DNA of 64,000 nt from the NCBI GenBank assembly GCA_963664115.2, contig CAXWPJ010000012.1, positions 416,001 through 480,000 of the forward strand, read 5' to 3'. Shown here in pieces: positions 57,352 to 63,341 of the stretch. Within the stretch, counting starts at the first letter, position 1. Every line of letters starts with the position of its first letter. Source of the DNA: Terriglobia bacterium. Lineage in GTDB: Bacteria > Acidobacteriota > Terriglobia > 20CM-2-55-15. The notes beneath the pieces are model-generated. The model had not been told where the DNA came from. It was given only the letters and a program-made list of their open reading frames with translations, and did not search any database. The translations under genes were made by a program, and so were the position numbers.

Positions 57352-58035
57352 ATGATCCGATTCAAAGAACTGATTGAACTGTGGCGTACAGCAAATTCGC
57401 TCACACGGGCGTTTGAGGATTCCCACGTGATGCTGGAGATCACGAGACAGATGTTTACCGTCTCGGTCCAATCATTGCGCCAGAGCGATTCCGCCGAAGT
57501 CGGCGTGGAAATTTATGCGATGGACCAGAAAATCAACCAGTATGAACAGGACGTTCGACGCAATGTATTGAAACACCTGGCAATCACCGGTGGTGCGAAT
57601 ATCATTCCCGGTCTGATCCTGACCAGCATCGTGATCGACATCGAACGGATCGGAGACTACACCAAAAACATCAAGGACCTCGCCGCCGGTCACCCGACAC
57701 GCCTCACGGGTGGTCGCTACAATGAAGACCTGATAAATCTTGAAACGGGTGTCGGAGAGGTCTATGAAAAAATACTGCCGATGCTCAAATCTTCAGATTC
57801 GGCGGGAGCACGAAAGCTGATGAAGGGCCATTGGTGGATACTTCAAAAGTGCGACGAGATCGTCAAAGAGCTGATTGCCTCGCCGGACCCGGAGATCACC
57901 GCGACGGACGCCGTCGCAACCGCCCTGTACACCCGCTATCTCAAACGCATCGCGGCACATCTCATGAACATTGCTTCCAGTATTTTCAATCCCTTCGAGC
58001 GTATCGGATTTCGTGCAGAAGAAGATGATGAGTAG
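57352..58035 (+). CDS. PhoU-domain protein
   Basis: DQKINQYE, DIERIGDY and YLKRIAAH. Confidence 0.85.
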   Translation: MIRFKELIELWRTANSLTRAFEDSHVMLEITRQMFTVSVQSLRQSDSAEVGVEIYAMDQKINQYEQDVRRNVLKHLAITGGANIIPGLILTSIVIDIERIGDYTKNIKDLAAGHPTRLTGGRYNEDLINLETGVGEVYEKILPMLKSSDSAGARKLMKGHWWILQKCDEIVKELIASPDPEITATDAVATALYTRYLKRIAAHLMNIASSIFNPFERIGFRAEEDDE

Positions 58036-58189
58036 ACACGAATTGAACCCCTAGCCAGGCTCGAATCGCGGCGCCCAACTCCTGTTAAAGCATGCGTTTA
58101 CGATCACCCTTCACGTCTTCACCAACACGCGGCCCGACAGTCGAGGCTCATGTGTTCACAGTATGGAATGCGCAGTCTGAAAACATCAG

Positions 58190-58219
58190 TTGACGCGGTC
58201 GCTGGCGCCGCGCTATCCT
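58190..58219 (+). promoter_or_regulatory. Sigma70-like promoter
   Basis: TTGACG-N18-TATCCT just upstream of the first aptamer. Confidence 0.5.
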
Positions 58220-58235
58220 TTCCGGGCTGGTTATA

Positions 58236-58284
58236 GACGTGGTGATTTACTTAAATTGCTCCACGTTAAAGATGTGCTAAACAG
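58236..58284 (+). ncRNA. SAM-II-like riboswitch aptamer 1
   Basis: P1 ACGUGG/CCACGU encloses UGAUUU...UUGC; 3' AAAGAUGUGCUAAA. Matches the SAM-II pseudoknot pattern. Confidence 0.7.
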
Positions 58285-58299
58285 CTCAGGTGTCCCGCG

Positions 58300-58330
58300 A
58301 AGCCCTGCGCCCGTTTGGTGTAGGGTTTTT
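58300..58330 (+). terminator. Intrinsic terminator 1
   Basis: AGCCCTGCGCC-loop-GGTGTAGGGTT followed by a T-run. Confidence 0.7.
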
Positions 58331-58342
58331 GTATTTTGGGCA

Positions 58343-58391
58343 GCGTGGCGATTTAAGACAAATTGCTCCACGTTAAAGATGTGCTAAACAG
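58343..58391 (+). ncRNA. SAM-II-like riboswitch aptamer 2
   Basis: GCGUGG-CGAUUU...UUGCU-CCACGU; 32 bp (58360-58391) identical to 58253-58284. Confidence 0.7.
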
Positions 58392-58406
58392 TCCGGCGGA
58401 TTTCGG

Positions 58407-58442
58407 AAAGAACCCCGCGCTGTATGGCGCGGGGTTCTTTTT
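58407..58442 (+). terminator. Intrinsic terminator 2
   Basis: AAAGAACCCCGCGC-TGTATG-GCGCGGGGTTCTTTTT. Confidence 0.85.
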
Positions 58443-58502
58443 GGTTCACTCCCCGTTTTCAAGGGCGAACCCCCCGTCACGCCGGAACGAGGAGAGATCG
58501 AC

Positions 58503-59741
58503 ATGAGTTTTGTTACAGGGTTGAGCTGCCGCGAATGCGGTCGTCAATACCCGAAACGTCTGATTGCAGGATGCCAGGAATGCTTCGCACCTCTCAAGGT
58601 CGAGTACGACTACGAGGCGATCGGCAAAGTGCTGACTCGTGACGTCATTCGATCACGCGACAACTCGATCTGGCGTTATCGCGAACTGCTGCCAATCGAC
58701 GGTGATCCCCAGATCGGACTCGATACCGGGGGCACCCCGCTGGTTCGAGCCGAACGATTGGGCAACGCTATCGGCATCGATGAACTTTATATCAAGAATG
58801 ACAGTGTGAACTTTCCGACCCTTTCCTTCAAAGACCGCGTGACGGCCGTCGCAATCAACAAGGCCCTGGAATTTGGTCTCCAGGCTGTCGGATGTGCCTC
58901 CACCGGAAACCTCGCAAATTCTGTGGCAGCCAATGCGGCTGCGGCTGGACTGCCGGCATGGATATTGATTCCGGACAATCTGGAAGCGGCGAAAGTCAAC
59001 GCGACCTCCGTCTACGGTTCACACGTAATCGCCGTTCGCGGCAACTATGACGACGTCAACCGCCTGTGCAGCCAGATCGCCGACCACTACGGCTGGGGAT
59101 TCGTCAACGTCAACCTGCGTCCCTATTACGGCGACGGATCTAAATCCTTCGGATATGAAATCGCCGAGCAGCTCGGCTGGCGTGCGCCCGACGCGATCGT
59201 TGTACCCATGGCTGGCGGATCCTTGATCACGAAAACGCATTTCGGAATGAAAGAATTCGAAAGCCTCGGATTGCTCGACGAACCGGTCCGGACCAAGATA
59301 TTCGGCGCCCAAGCGACCGGTTGTAACCCCATCACCGCGGCAGTCAAGAGTGGTACCCGCAAGATTCGGCCCGTTAAACCATCGACCATCGCCAAGTCGC
59401 TGGCCATTGGCTCGCCGGCCGATGGCTACTACGCAGTGGAAGTCATTACGGAATCCGGCGGATGGGGCGAAGACGTCACGGACGAAGAAATTGCCGAAAA
59501 CATCCAGTTACTGGCAGAGACGGAAGGCATCTACACTGAAACTGCCGGCGGCGTTGCTCTGGGCGTCACTCGAAAACTGGTGGCACAAGGCAGGATCAAG
59601 CGGCAGGACGTCACGGTGATCGCGAATACCGGAAACGGCCTGAAAACACAGGATGCCCTGACTCTTCAACCCCCCAGAACAATTGAAGCCAAGCTTGCAG
59701 AGTTCGACGCAGCCGTCCACGAGCTCAGCGTGACAGCCTAG
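58503..59741 (+). CDS. Threonine-synthase-like fold-type II PLP enzyme
   Basis: N-terminal CRECG/CQEC; PTLSFKDR (PLP Lys); ASTGNLA; TGNGLK. Confidence 0.88.
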   Translation: MSFVTGLSCRECGRQYPKRLIAGCQECFAPLKVEYDYEAIGKVLTRDVIRSRDNSIWRYRELLPIDGDPQIGLDTGGTPLVRAERLGNAIGIDELYIKNDSVNFPTLSFKDRVTAVAINKALEFGLQAVGCASTGNLANSVAANAAAAGLPAWILIPDNLEAAKVNATSVYGSHVIAVRGNYDDVNRLCSQIADHYGWGFVNVNLRPYYGDGSKSFGYEIAEQLGWRAPDAIVVPMAGGSLITKTHFGMKEFESLGLLDEPVRTKIFGAQATGCNPITAAVKSGTRKIRPVKPSTIAKSLAIGSPADGYYAVEVITESGGWGEDVTDEEIAENIQLLAETEGIYTETAGGVALGVTRKLVAQGRIKRQDVTVIANTGNGLKTQDALTLQPPRTIEAKLAEFDAAVHELSVTA

Positions 59742-59772: not shown

Positions 59773-60054
59773 ATGACTACTCGAGTCACCATTCCTACAC
59801 CGCTTCGGCGATTCACTGCAGAAGACGCCGAAATTGATGTCGAAGCCGACACGATTTCAGAGATCCTGAATGAGCTGGATCAGAAGTATCCGGGTCTGAA
59901 AGCCCGCCTCTGCGAGGAAAACGGGGAGTTGCGACGCTTCTTCAACATTTACGTCGACGAAGAAGACGTGCGCTTCCTGGATGACCTACAGACGAAGGTT
60001 CCGGCTGGAGCGGAAGTCTCGATTATCCCTGCTATCTCCGGCGGACGGTTCTAG
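59773..60054 (+). CDS. MoaD/ThiS/CysO-family sulfur-carrier protein
   Basis: IPTPLRRFT...NIYVDEEDVRF...IPAISGG-RF. Confidence 0.9.
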   Translation: MTTRVTIPTPLRRFTAEDAEIDVEADTISEILNELDQKYPGLKARLCEENGELRRFFNIYVDEEDVRFLDDLQTKVPAGAEVSIIPAISGGRF

Positions 60055-60256: not shown

Positions 60257-61675
60257 TTACCCTAATTCTTTCCCACCACCCATCGCCGCACGAATCCGGG
60301 CAAGCCGTTCTCTCTCTCCCACAGTCACCCCGAAAACGATCACCGCCGGTGATAGGATTCCGTTCGACAGTTCTTCGATGTTCTCCAGGGTTCCGACACG
60401 CACATCCTGTTCTGTCCATGTCCCCCGCGATATCACGGCGGCTGGTGTCTCGCTGTGGCAACCGGCCTGGCTGAGGCGACGCACGATGACATCCAGACGG
60501 GACAGCCCCATCAGCACGACAACCGTCCCGCCTCCGGCGACGACACTCCGAGCGCCGACCCACTCCTCCGGACTCGCGTCGTCGGCTCGGGAGCCCGTCA
60601 TCACCATGAACGAATGTGCCACGTCACGGTGTGTGACCGGTATGCCGGCAGCCGCCGGCGCGGAGATCGCGCTGGTCACGCCGGGAATAATTTCAAAGGG
60701 AATGTCCGCCTCAGTCAACGCGCGCGCTTCTTCCCCACCCCGCCCGAACACGAATGGGTCGCCCCCTTTCAGACGACACACGCTCAGGCCTCGTTTCGCC
60801 CGCTCGACCATTGTTTCTTGAATAAAATCCTGCATGCGGCCACCGTCCCCGACCTGTTTGCCGACATCGATCACTTCGGCTCCCGCACGTGCTTCCTCCA
60901 AAAGGCGAGTATCGATGAGGCGATCGTGCAAGATCACATCAGCCATGCGAAGCAAGTCCAGCCCTCGTGATGTGATCAGTCCGGGGTCTCCGGGTCCTGA
61001 GCCAACGATATATACACAGCCGGATGCCCGGGGAGAGCCCTTCGAAGCATCCCGGATGATCGCGTCAATCCGTAATTCGATTGTCTCCAGATCCGATTCA
61101 AGAATCCTGTGGAGGATGTTCGAATCCACAATCCGATAGTGCAGTTGCCGGCGTTCTTCTTCGTCCGACACGGACTCTTTCACGCGCGAACGAATTCGGC
61201 TCAACACCTCGAGGAGCTTCTCGTATTCAGGTCCCACGATCGACGCTATGCGTCGCCTCAATCGAGCCGCCAAGGCCGGACTCGCACCCCCGGTTGAAAT
61301 CGCTATCGTTAAATCGCCACGCCGCACGAGGGCGGGCATGATGAAATCGCATTTCGACGGATCGTCGGCAACGTTGATCGGGATTTTCCCCTCACGCGAT
61401 TCATGCCAGGCGGCTGCATTGACTTTCGGATCATCGCTTGCCGTCAACACCACCCAGGAGTCGGTCAGATCTCCAGACTCATAAGCGCGCAGATGCACGC
61501 TGATCTTGCCGGCTTCGGAGAGCGATTCGAGTATCGATGTCACTTCAGGACTGATCACCGTCACGCGCGCATCGCACTCAAGAAGCGCCTGAACCCGTTG
61601 CTCGGCGACATGACCGCCACCGATGACCGTCACGCGGCGGTCTTTTACGTTGAGCGAAATCGGGAAATATTTCAT
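60257..61675 (-). CDS. cysG: Siroheme synthase
   Basis: GGGHVA, INVADDP and ISTGGASP, followed by a CobA domain (GSGPGDP, RLKGGDPFVFGRGGEE). Confidence 0.93.
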   Translation of the reverse strand: MKYFPISLNVKDRRVTVIGGGHVAEQRVQALLECDARVTVISPEVTSILESLSEAGKISVHLRAYESGDLTDSWVVLTASDDPKVNAAAWHESREGKIPINVADDPSKCDFIMPALVRRGDLTIAISTGGASPALAARLRRRIASIVGPEYEKLLEVLSRIRSRVKESVSDEEERRQLHYRIVDSNILHRILESDLETIELRIDAIIRDASKGSPRASGCVYIVGSGPGDPGLITSRGLDLLRMADVILHDRLIDTRLLEEARAGAEVIDVGKQVGDGGRMQDFIQETMVERAKRGLSVCRLKGGDPFVFGRGGEEARALTEADIPFEIIPGVTSAISAPAAAGIPVTHRDVAHSFMVMTGSRADDASPEEWVGARSVVAGGGTVVVLMGLSRLDVIVRRLSQAGCHSETPAAVISRGTWTEQDVRVGTLENIEELSNGILSPAVIVFGVTVGERERLARIRAAMGGGKELG

Positions 61676-62492
61676 CGCTCGGTGTGCTCGAAATACGTCG
61701 CAATCGCGTCTGCGAGGGGAGCCATCTTTGGCGCCGTCGGCAGAATCCGCGCCGTGATCCGACGGCTGACCAATGCCCGTCCGGTTACCTCACCGACCAC
61801 CGCAACAGAAATCCTGTCGTTAAAAGCACGCCACAGTTCTTCCAATCGACCGGCCGTTCCGGCCGTTTGAAAAAGCGATTCAATCTGGGGCGCACTCGTA
61901 AAGGTGATCGCGTCCACCCCGCCCGAGAGCAGCGTTTCGATAAAGTCGAGCACCCGTCTCGTGTCGGAGGCCGGACCGTAGTTATATACTTGTACGATGG
62001 ATACTCGTGCACCGAGATCTTCCAGACCCGAAACGAAATCTGGATTCGGACTCCCGTAGAGCTGGACTCCAATGCGTTTTCCTTCGAGTTGCTCCTTCCG
62101 GAACAGCTCGAGCAAACCCTCAGAAGTCGCTTTTTCTGGCGCCAGATCGACGCTCAAACCCAACTTTCTCATCGCTGCTCGAGGTTTCGGGCCGCGGGCA
62201 ACGACCTTCATTCTTTTCAAAGCTTCTTTGAATGCATCCGATCGGCCCATAGCCGCGGCTTCCTCTCCAATGAACCGCGCGCCGACTCCGGTAAAAAACA
62301 CCACAAAATCGAAATCTTCTTCGATGATCCCCTCGATGAAGACACGCAACTGGGCGCGGTTCCGAACGGGCCTCTCTTCTAATAAAGGACAAGAAATAAC
62401 CGTGGCCCCGTGCCGCTCGATCAACGACAGAGGTGGACCCCATACGTTGGACAGCTTGGCAGCCAATTTAAGGTGGATTCCGCGGTTCATGT

Positions 62493-63341
62493 TTATGCTG
62501 CCGAGGTCAGTGGCCGTGTTCCCGCGTAGGCTTCGCTCGGCGTGAGATCGTCGAGTTTGGAATGCGGGCGGTCGTTATTGTAATAGTTCATCCAGACACC
62601 TATGTGGTGCCGGGCATCTTTGAAGTCACTGAAGGCGTTTAGATAAACGCATTCGTATTTGATCGAGCGCCATAGGCGTTCGATGAAAACGTTGTCGATC
62701 CATTGCCCCTTGCCGTCCATGGAGATCCGGATACCTCGTTCTTTAAGTCGGTCGGTCCAGGCCTTGCTGGTGAACTGGCTGCCCTGATCGGTGTTGAAGA
62801 TTTCCGGACTGCCGTATTCCTCGATCGCCTCGTCGAGGGCTTCAAGGCAAAACGTCGTGTCCTGGGTGTTGGACAGCCGCCAGGACAACACCTTCCGCGT
62901 ATGCCAGTCCATGATCGCGACCAGATATAAGAATCCGTGCGCCATCGGGATATACGTCACGTCGGTAGACCACGCTTGATTCGCCCGCTCCACGGCAATG
63001 TCGTTGAGTAGATATGGGTACACCGGATGAGCCGGGTTTCTCCGGGACGTCTGCGGTGCCACCGAGCGCAGCCCCATCAACCGCATTAGTCGGCGTACCC
63101 GCTTCCGGCCCACATCGTAGCCGAGACGTTTCAGATGACGCGTCATCTGCCTGGACCCATACCAGGGCATCTTCAGATACGCCTCGTCGATCACGCGCAT
63201 CAGGTCCAGATTGCGATCACTCTCACCCCGTGGCCGATAGTACCAACTCGAACGGCTCAACCCGATCAAGTCGCATTGCCGGACCACACTGAGCTGCTCA
63301 TGGCCCGGTTCGACCACCTCGCGCCTTCGACCCAAGCTCAT
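62493..63341 (-). CDS. IS3 transposase OrfB (DDE)
   Basis: WSTDVTY, NTDQGSQFT, DNVFIERLWRSIKYE and RPHS. Confidence 0.92.
   Translation of the reverse strand: MSLGRRREVVEPGHEQLSVVRQCDLIGLSRSSWYYRPRGESDRNLDLMRVIDEAYLKMPWYGSRQMTRHLKRLGYDVGRKRVRRLMRLMGLRSVAPQTSRRNPAHPVYPYLLNDIAVERANQAWSTDVTYIPMAHGFLYLVAIMDWHTRKVLSWRLSNTQDTTFCLEALDEAIEEYGSPEIFNTDQGSQFTSKAWTDRLKERGIRISMDGKGQWIDNVFIERLWRSIKYECVYLNAFSDFKDARHHIGVWMNYYNNDRPHSKLDDLTPSEAYAGTRPLTSAA

Follow-up and report, generated by a model that had tools for sequence, protein, structure and literature searches.

Two predicted SAM-II-class aptamers in tandem, each followed by its own terminator, before a likely metM/metO operon in a Terriglobia bacterium

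S-Adenosylmethionine (SAM) riboswitches belonging to class SAM-II (metA motif) were described with promoters a few nucleotides (nt) before the first helix, P1, and terminators after the pseudoknot helix, P2 (Corbino et al. 2005, PMC1273637). According to passages of Barrick and Breaker 2007 and Huang and Lilley 2018, most SAM-II representatives carry terminators, which contradicts the view that SAM-II usually controls translation, held in an earlier interpretation of the present DNA (the sequence-only reading). A passage of Barrick and Breaker 2007 also states that SAM-II aptamers interface with the expression platform through the distal pseudoknot. In the solved SAM-II and SAM-V structures, as described in part of Huang and Lilley 2018, a spare U pairs with the SAM adenine, U:A.U triples cradle the sulfonium, and a short P2a completes the fold. 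In passages of Sherlock et al. 2022 (PMC9481103), 44 examples of tandem SAM-II are described; "in some instances" each aptamer has a terminator after it, and the tandems are read as pseudo-cooperative. As for the genes, GapMind 2026 (Table 2) lists, for Streptomyces, the homocysteine synthase MetM, which depends on MetO-thiocarboxylate, and its sulfur carrier MetO. MetM is a ThrC homolog, and metM of S. albulus has an upstream SAM riboswitch and adjoins metO (Hasebe 2024, as cited in passages of PMC13759103 and PMC12172450). Here, we analyzed a leader located at 58238-58442 of a 64,000-nt stretch of the genome of a Terriglobia bacterium (contig CAXWPJ010000012.1), referred to as the window, in which it precedes a thrC-like gene.

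It is highly probable that this leader comprises two SAM-II-class aptamers with their own terminators, each acting as a SAM-triggered transcriptional OFF switch for a likely metM/metO operon. Covariance model matches, pseudoknot pairings, gene context, and comparative data support what the sequence-only reading had proposed, namely, a doubled transcription-attenuating SAM-II-type switch before a thrC-like gene in a probable acidobacterium. The two aptamer-like units lie between a promoter-like site and the thrC-like gene, and the features of the leader are as follows.

58190-58219, + strand: promoter-like site TTGACG-18-TATCCT (-35 at 58190-58195, -10 at 58214-58219), sigma-70-like with 9/12 matches
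58238-58286, + strand: unit 1 aptamer, from RF00521 (26.9 bits), our own model R1 (60.8 bits), and pair counts
58238-58242 with 58261-58265, + strand: unit 1 P1, CGUGG/CCACG
58244-58248, + strand: unit 1 third strand, GAUUU
58256-58259 (UUGC) with G58276, C58277, A58279, and A58280, + strand: unit 1 P2b, U58278 unpaired
58266-58275, + strand: unit 1 L3
58284-58286, + strand: unit 1 P2a 3' strand, with a degenerate 5' partner at 58250-58252 (CUU)
58344-58393, + strand: unit 2 aptamer, from RF00521 (27.7 bits), R1 (69.2 bits), and pair counts
58344-58348 with 58368-58372, + strand: unit 2 P1, CGUGG/CCACG
58350-58354, + strand: unit 2 GAUUU
58363-58366 (UUGC) with G58383, C58384, A58386, and A58387, + strand: unit 2 P2b, U58385 unpaired
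58357-58359 (GAC) with 58391-58393 (GUC), + strand: unit 2 P2a
58490-58496, + strand: ribosome-binding site AGGAGAG, 6 nt before the ATG and about 50 nt past the second terminator, outside both switches

A repeat scan identified an exact direct repeat of 32 nt (58253-58284 and 58360-58391) with a start-to-start distance of 107 nt. A second repeat of 12 nt (58238-58249 versus 58344-58355, 11 of 12 positions identical) spans the P1 5' strand and GATTT. The 32 shared bases are the conserved aptamer core. Several observations of the sequence-only reading were borne out, including 32 identical bp at a spacing of 107 bp, P1 pairing kept in both units (CGUGG/CCACG), a different terminator hairpin behind each unit (T1 and T2), and a position between a promoter and the thrC-like gene. 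The promoter-like site is weak taken alone, as a scan of 57800-58700 yielded 1 site versus 0.5 expected, but the TTGACG...TAT..T layout recurs upstream of the first unit in relatives. No promoter-like site was detected between the units in the same scan. Transcription likely starts about 10 nt 5' of the unit 1 P1.

At gathering thresholds, Rfam models gave zero matches over the whole 64-kb window. In a permissive scan of 58100-58520, RF00521 (SAM_alpha, SAM-II) matched unit 2 with 27.7 bits (58335-58408) and unit 1 with 26.9 bits (58229-58301), with E values over the whole 4.9-Mb genome of 6.0e-4 and 9.8e-4, respectively. All upper-case consensus bases of RF00521 are matched in the window units, except for one deletion just before GCUAAA. 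The SAM-II long-loop model reached just 14.3 bits in the permissive scan, and SAM-V was absent among the 29 matches listed at E values up to 10. The sequence-only reading had proposed Rfam SAM-II and SAM-V models as a check and the lack of any covariance model hit as a refutation; half of that objection holds, since nothing reaches the gathering score, and half falls, since the SAM-II matches below it are significant. The RF00521 cut-off of 36 bits is a curated search threshold of Rfam and not a structural feature, and the same-position units of two relatives (G016 and G006, members of a sister genus, the unit being the first of a tandem locus in both) exceed it, with 37.0 and 36.2 bits. Our own covariance model R1, built from 127 aptamers with P1 only, found just four matches in the window genome at E values up to 1, including unit 2 (69.2 bits), unit 1 (60.8 bits), and two elsewhere (45 and 41.4 bits). 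The window units can thus be regarded as significant yet sub-threshold members of a lineage in which some orthologs lie above the Rfam cut-off.

The elements typical of the class are present in both window units, including a P1 of 5 bp (about 5 to 6 bp in the class), UUGC/GC(U)AA with a spare U, a GAUUU third strand, and an A-rich linker, and so are the bases matching the ligand-contacting positions of the solved structures. P2a, by which SAM-II membership can be judged, was found as three pairs in unit 2 and as one G-U pair in unit 1. P2 pairing was counted in 112 unique units with the register set solely by the anchors UUGC and GCUAAA. The three P2a positions are paired in 95, 98, and 85 of the units (G-C, G-U, and A-U types), whereas the first two positions are paired in just 9 and 6 units with a shift of +1 and in 25 and 16 units with a shift of -1. 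P2b, with one U left out, occurs in 112/112 units, and the bases of GAUUU are likewise invariant in all of them, counts partly imposed by the search pattern. P1, P2b, and P2a are kept across more than 140 related units, most of which are from Acidobacteriota. In a MAFFT alignment (A1) of the 111 units having a credible terminator, 94.8% of the cells of P1, P2, and the terminator are paired, compared with 32 to 53% with slid partners. Double-change cells number 150 versus 45 in shuffles, with 0/500 shuffles reaching 150, a statistic that overstates significance as the sequences are related. Compensatory changes occur in 9 of the 11 terminator pairs, and P1 has the compensatory variants CGUCG/CGACG (in L001 and L002, two further copies in the window genome), GGUGG/CCACC, and AGUGG/CCACU. 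The first P1 pair is CG in 103 units, AU in 4, UG in 2, and GC in 1.

Compared with the SAM-II family as modeled in RF00521, the window units share the H-type pseudoknot, the 5-bp P1, GAUUU, UUGC/GC(U)AA with the spare U, the A-rich linker, and P2a, as well as a promoter just before P1, a terminator between P2 and the open reading frame (ORF), and methionine genes downstream. They differ in a linker before GCUAAA that is one base shorter, in a P2a of 3 bp versus 5 bp in 60% of SAM-II (according to a passage of Huang and Lilley 2018), and in their hosts, which are Acidobacteriota rather than Proteobacteria or Bacteroidetes. SAM-V (RF01826) and the SAM-II/SAM-V tandems share the binding-site architecture, and tandem use has been described for them; SAM-V, however, exerts translational control, whereas the window units carry terminators and SAM-V is missing from the listed matches. 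The tandem SAM-II examples, as far as the passages of Sherlock et al. 2022 describe them, have two aptamers in one leader as here, with no difference in kind. Tandem SAM-II with two terminators is already in print, and there is little new in kind in the present arrangement.

The two terminators are as follows.

58299-58337, + strand: terminator T1, stem 58299-58311 with 58317-58329, loop CGUUU, and U-rich tail to 58337 (terminator scan)
58407-58442, + strand: terminator T2, perfect 14-bp stem 58407-58420 with 58427-58440, 6-nt loop, and U tract to 58442 (inverted-repeat scan)

The T1 fold has a free energy of -20.3 kcal/mol (downstream segment), and that of T2 has -31.7 kcal/mol. T2 was not listed by the simple terminator scan because its T run lies partly within the stem. 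The terminator portions of Rfam leader models match at T2, and weak matches of the Leu and Thr leader models there would fit an attenuator dependent on a protein or the ribosome, be it a leader peptide, an RNA-binding regulator, or simply terminators in tandem, in place of a ligand-sensing element. These matches cover the generic terminator hairpin only, the sole leader ORF of at least 60 amino acids (aa) (58190-58387) begins inside the -35 box, and the conserved core has a covarying pseudoknot and follows a known ligand-binding fold position for position, which renders an attenuator of this kind extremely improbable.

For the two ligand-responsive switches that we favor, the sequence-only reading had left the mechanism unclear because the terminators do not obviously overlap the aptamers. 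The predicted answer is simple, namely, an antiterminator into which the 3' strand of P2 would be recruited. This pseudoknot strand (GCUAAACAG and following bases) is complementary to the top of the terminator left arm, the loop, and the start of the right arm. The rule over all units is that GCUAAA-N is complementary to N'-UUU-(G/A)-GC, which constitutes the apical loop of the terminator and the initial two or three right-arm bases. The loop sequences GUUUGG, GUUUAG, and CUUUGG are probably conserved because the loop is the antiterminator partner. In the window, the predicted pairings are as follows.

58276-58319, + strand: predicted antiterminator of unit 1, 58276-58290 (GCUAAACAGCUCAGG) with 58304-58319 (CCUGCGCCCGUUUGGU)
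58383-58428, + strand: predicted antiterminator of unit 2, 58383-58392 (GCUAAACAGU) with 58419-58428 (GCUGUAUGGC), 9/10 positions
58394-58396 with 58415-58417 and 58398-58399 with 58413-58414, + strand: extension of the unit 2 antiterminator by five more left-arm pairs

In folds of the growing transcript, those with ends at 58317-58321 (unit 1) and 58424-58432 (unit 2) have the antiterminator as their minimum-energy structure, and it is replaced by the terminator upon completion of the right arm. When transcripts cut before the right arm are folded, the bases that follow GCUAAA recurrently form a helix with the terminator left arm and loop. When the pseudoknot strands are blocked in folding, P1 and the terminator alone are formed. 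Other pairings tried by hand, namely, the P1 5' strand with the left arm, the linker GGGUUU with AAGCCC, and L3 with the U tract, were too short or unconserved.

The antiterminator was also evaluated across the 111 terminator-bearing units, with the register chosen on the constant GCUAAA alone to guard against circularity. GCUAAA pairs with the terminator loop and right-arm start at 6/6 positions in 69 units and at 5/6 or more in 82. The next base, which was not used for the register, is paired in 76 of these 82 units (C-G 52, G-C 21, U-A 2, and A-U 1), and position +8 is paired in 67/82. This script count is preferred over the MAFFT alignment for the column after GCUAAA, because that alignment puts the loop C of the G-C class in the wrong place. 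Permutation of the tails among units gave 175 ± 4.8 paired cells, with a maximum of 192 in 2000 trials, compared with 208 observed. For the 15-pair antiterminator, 75.4% of cells are paired on the MAFFT alignment, compared with 27 to 42% when slid, and its double-change cells number 58 versus 29.6 in shuffles, with 0/500 shuffles reaching 58.

These pairings suggest the following course of events. Transcription would start about 10 nt before unit 1. At low SAM, the 3' strand of the pseudoknot (GCUAAACAG and the next few bases) would be free to pair with the terminator left-arm top, the loop, and the first two or three right-arm bases once these are made, and the antiterminator would block nucleation of the terminator so that the polymerase reads on. 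Bound SAM would hold the strand in the H-type pseudoknot P2b/P2a, no antiterminator would form, and the terminator would fold. Because the same strand takes part in both the pseudoknot and the antiterminator, SAM binding would free the terminator, as in an OFF switch. The expected transcript ends with SAM bound lie near 58333 (unit 1) or 58444 (unit 2). Two independent switches in series may produce a steeper and tighter shut-off than one, in line with the "pseudo-cooperative" interpretation given by Sherlock et al. 2022. The predicted logic is consistent with the role of the distal pseudoknot stated by Barrick and Breaker 2007, and a literature search yielded nothing specific on SAM-II and antiterminators. 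A concrete and testable switching model for transcriptional SAM-II is thus available, in which the pseudoknot 3' strand competes for the terminator loop with support from covariation.

The units of the window are more similar to their positional counterparts in other genomes than to each other. Unit 1 shares 87 to 93% identity with unit 1 of three congeners, and unit 2 shares 90 to 95% with the congeners' unit 2, compared with 66.7% between the two window units (50% in the platforms). Across tandem loci, including those of Blastocatellia, unit 1 has a U after GUGG and an AUGU, ACGC, or AAGC linker in 23/25 cases, whereas 109/125 single units are of the downstream type (C and AACU). A credible terminator follows both units in 20 of the 25 tandem loci. 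Since each unit is orthologous by position across genera, the doublet is old and retained, not a recent duplication. The second units of L010 and L011 (G022 and G025) have a hairpin without a U tract followed by a long G+C-rich stretch, and the second expression platform may have been changed or lost in that genus.

Unit 1 of the window departs from its congeners in two respects. Its P2a 5' strand is CUU (58250-58252) versus CGC in the three congeners, which leaves one G-U pair, and T1 has one more G-U pair than theirs (GGUGUAGGG versus GGCGUAGGG), with three in the G+C core and a fourth closing the base. Because P2a pairing is mostly lost and T1 has this extra G-U pair, unit 1 is probably the weaker switch. 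Both departures would also fit a case in which only unit 2 works here, with unit 1 being a decaying relic and T1 a constant partial terminator or mostly bypassed. In a further genome of the same genus (G004, L020), RF00521 and our motif search find the second unit alone, with unit-1-like platform and T1 sequence still upstream, and the first aptamer there may be mutated. However, the binding-site bases GAUUU, UUGC, and GCUAAA and the P1 of unit 1 are intact in the window (60.8 bits with R1), and its antiterminator complementarity is retained. In addition, the crystallized metX SAM-II has just a 2-bp P2a (as given in a passage of Huang and Lilley 2018), and an alternative 4-bp P2a is possible in unit 1 between ACUU (58249-58252) and AGGU (58288-58291). 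Loss of function of unit 1 is therefore considered unlikely.

The genes downstream of the leader encode the following products.

58503-59741, + strand: thrC-like pyridoxal phosphate enzyme of 412 aa with a Cys-rich N-terminal stretch (PALP 227 bits, TIGR00260 269 bits)
59773-60054, + strand: ThiS/MoaD-family small protein of 93 aa ending in ..AISGGRF (ThiS 55 bits; SAMP1/MoaD-family models)

The former is likely a MetM-type homocysteine synthase and the latter a MetO-type sulfur carrier. The window genome contains two further thrC paralogs (32% and 30% identity), from which it follows that the riboswitch-controlled gene is an extra paralog, and two full-length Cys_Met_Meta_PP genes. The layout is thus that of MetM/MetO, with a ThrC-fold enzyme beside a ThiS/MoaD-type carrier, besides other thrC paralogs, and under a predicted SAM riboswitch. 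The metM-metO locus of S. albulus likewise has a gene for a thrC-homologous homocysteine synthase beside a small sulfur-carrier gene with a SAM riboswitch upstream; the citing passages do not state the riboswitch class, and the window pair is likened to it by gene family and neighborhood. The ThiS/MoaD-like protein runs two residues past Gly-Gly, so that C-terminal trimming would be needed before thiocarboxylation of such a carrier. The leader marks this pair as probably SAM-repressed and probably part of a MetM/MetO-type homocysteine route in Acidobacteriota, which aids pathway annotation in a poorly studied soil phylum.

Among 150 loci with at least one unit, a thrC-like gene lies downstream in 80 (60 behind one unit and 20 behind two), and in many of the other 70 the flanks are too short to judge. 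A further 39 downstream ORFs were scanned against Pfam. They comprise 17 Cys_Met_Meta_PP proteins, 9 homocysteine S-methyltransferases, 2 MetX-like alpha/beta hydrolases, 2 sulfite reductases, 1 aspartokinase, 2 TonB-dependent receptor-like proteins, 1 each of short-chain dehydrogenase, DinB, HTH_17, and Mu-type transposase, and 2 without a family. Together, the genes behind the units make up a methionine regulon, as would be expected if a SAM sensor controls them. At L014 and at the second unit of L042, the aptamer class precedes TonB-dependent-receptor-like genes (CarboxypepD_reg, Plug, and outer membrane barrel), which may be SAM-controlled uptake systems for a sulfur or methionine compound. 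At L019 (G017:C1, about 1400504-1400698 and downstream), an intact tandem leader is followed by a thrC-like gene that stops after about 20 codons and then by a Mu-type transposase ORF (Mu-transpos_C_2); the regulated gene was apparently cut by an insertion.

The methionine biosynthesis context fits SAM repression and bears on the identity of the ligand. One or both aptamers might sense S-adenosylhomocysteine or another methionine-cycle compound, making the tandem a two-input gate, since the unit-1 and unit-2 types are distinct and long-kept subtypes (by the counts of 23/25 and 109/125 given above) and both window units score below the Rfam cut-off. Nevertheless, the counterparts of the bases that hold the SAM adenine, sulfonium, and amino acid end in the solved structures, which are those of the U:A.U triples and the spare U, are invariant in both subtypes, and the 32-nt core is common in full to both window units. 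That either aptamer senses something other than SAM is accordingly regarded as very unlikely.

Several points weigh against the interpretation of the leader as two SAM-triggered OFF switches. Homology, context, and covariation are the grounds for taking SAM as the ligand and OFF as the direction. Both window units fall about 9 bits short of the RF00521 cut-off, which just 2 of the 46 matches in the 61 genomes scanned reach, and the degenerate P2a of unit 1 belongs here as well. Since the exact-pattern search prescribed the 3' strand of P1 as well as P2b, their invariance in the loci it retrieved is no evidence, and the kinship of the units inflates the shuffle statistics. A credible terminator is missing in 35 of 146 unique units. 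With respect to the antiterminator, 29 of the 111 terminator-bearing units have less than 5/6 pairing in the tested register, position +7 is paired in just 24/82 units and is mostly a mismatch, and pairing declines beyond +8. Full-length minimum-energy folds contain P1 and the terminator only and no antiterminator. At about -18 kcal/mol, the antiterminator is far weaker than T2 at about -31 kcal/mol; because the terminator is thermodynamically much stronger, any effect of the antiterminator must be kinetic. RNA-library contigs from three runs of one study cover 58253-58391 and the coding parts 58463-58761, 59071-59225, and 59386-59593, with none from a fourth run. Breaks in these contigs coincide with the edges of the 32-nt repeat, and the contigs are uninformative on starts, ends, and termination, and DNA carry-over is possible; the absence of cover upstream of 58240 is likewise no evidence. 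In contigs of two of the runs, four substitutions and a one-base deletion were found at 58285, 58312, 58331, 58334, and 58342 (unit 1 platform and spacer), with the aptamer cores untouched, which indicates a close strain variant in the samples.

In the phylum, the element appears to be widespread but patchy. RF00521 matches at E values up to 0.01 were obtained in 33 of 61 genomes, comprising the window genome and 60 relatives. With the window genome excluded, they occurred in 28/34 genomes of one family (f1), in 4/4 of a second (f2), and in 0/22 from nine other families of the class, and 14 control genomes gave no match at the same threshold. An exact-pattern scan of one genome per species retrieved at least 120 loci, nearly all in metagenome-assembled genomes (MAGs) titled as Acidobacteriota. 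Hosts among the loci listed include Terriglobia, Blastocatellia, Pyrinomonadaceae, Chloracidobacterium, Solibacter, and Acidoferrum, together with a few MAGs bearing other phylum labels. In an even sample of the phylum, R1 matched 16 of 151 genomes (including the window genome), concentrated in a few families, and tandem-spaced pairs were present in four further genomes. No paper retrieved ties SAM-II to Acidobacteria in its title or the start of its abstract, and the available passages are silent too, with the list of 44 examples of Sherlock et al. 2022 lying outside these passages. Being under the Rfam cut-off, a large acidobacterial SAM-II set would be missed by routine annotation. The acidobacterial elements might even constitute a distinct SAM-II sub-lineage largely missed by Rfam, with a 3-bp P2a, a shorter linker, an antiterminator partner in the terminator loop, and two tandem subtypes kept apart by affinity or kinetics so as to set two thresholds, but we consider this broader proposal rather doubtful. 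If true, it could mean, for instance, a graded and then complete shut-off of a MetM/MetO homocysteine route and not mere sharpening.

The two other SAM-II-like aptamers of the window genome are L001 (1507-1800; G000:C7:19572-19649) and L002 (G000:C5:20630-20711, minus strand). They score 34 and 30.7 bits with RF00521 and 45 and 41.4 bits with R1, and both have the P1 CGUCG/CGACG and a P2a formed by AGC and GCU. Each runs right up to the ATG of an HTH_17 (excisionase/AlpA-type) gene coding for 79 aa, and a tyrosine integrase gene comes next. Both the GAGG ribosome site and the start codon are located within or against P2, which is the classic translational SAM-II layout. The exact pattern of these HTH-linked copies was not found in the 60 relatives or in viral contigs, and a protein-based scan of viral contigs yielded just a 19-residue match. 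It would be unusual for an excision/integration module to be under a SAM switch.

In the window itself, two genes related to sulfur assimilation converge on the operon from the minus strand, followed by a transposase gene.

60257-61675, minus strand: siroheme synthase CysG
61672-62490, minus strand: uroporphyrinogen-III synthase
62493-63341, minus strand: IS3-family transposase

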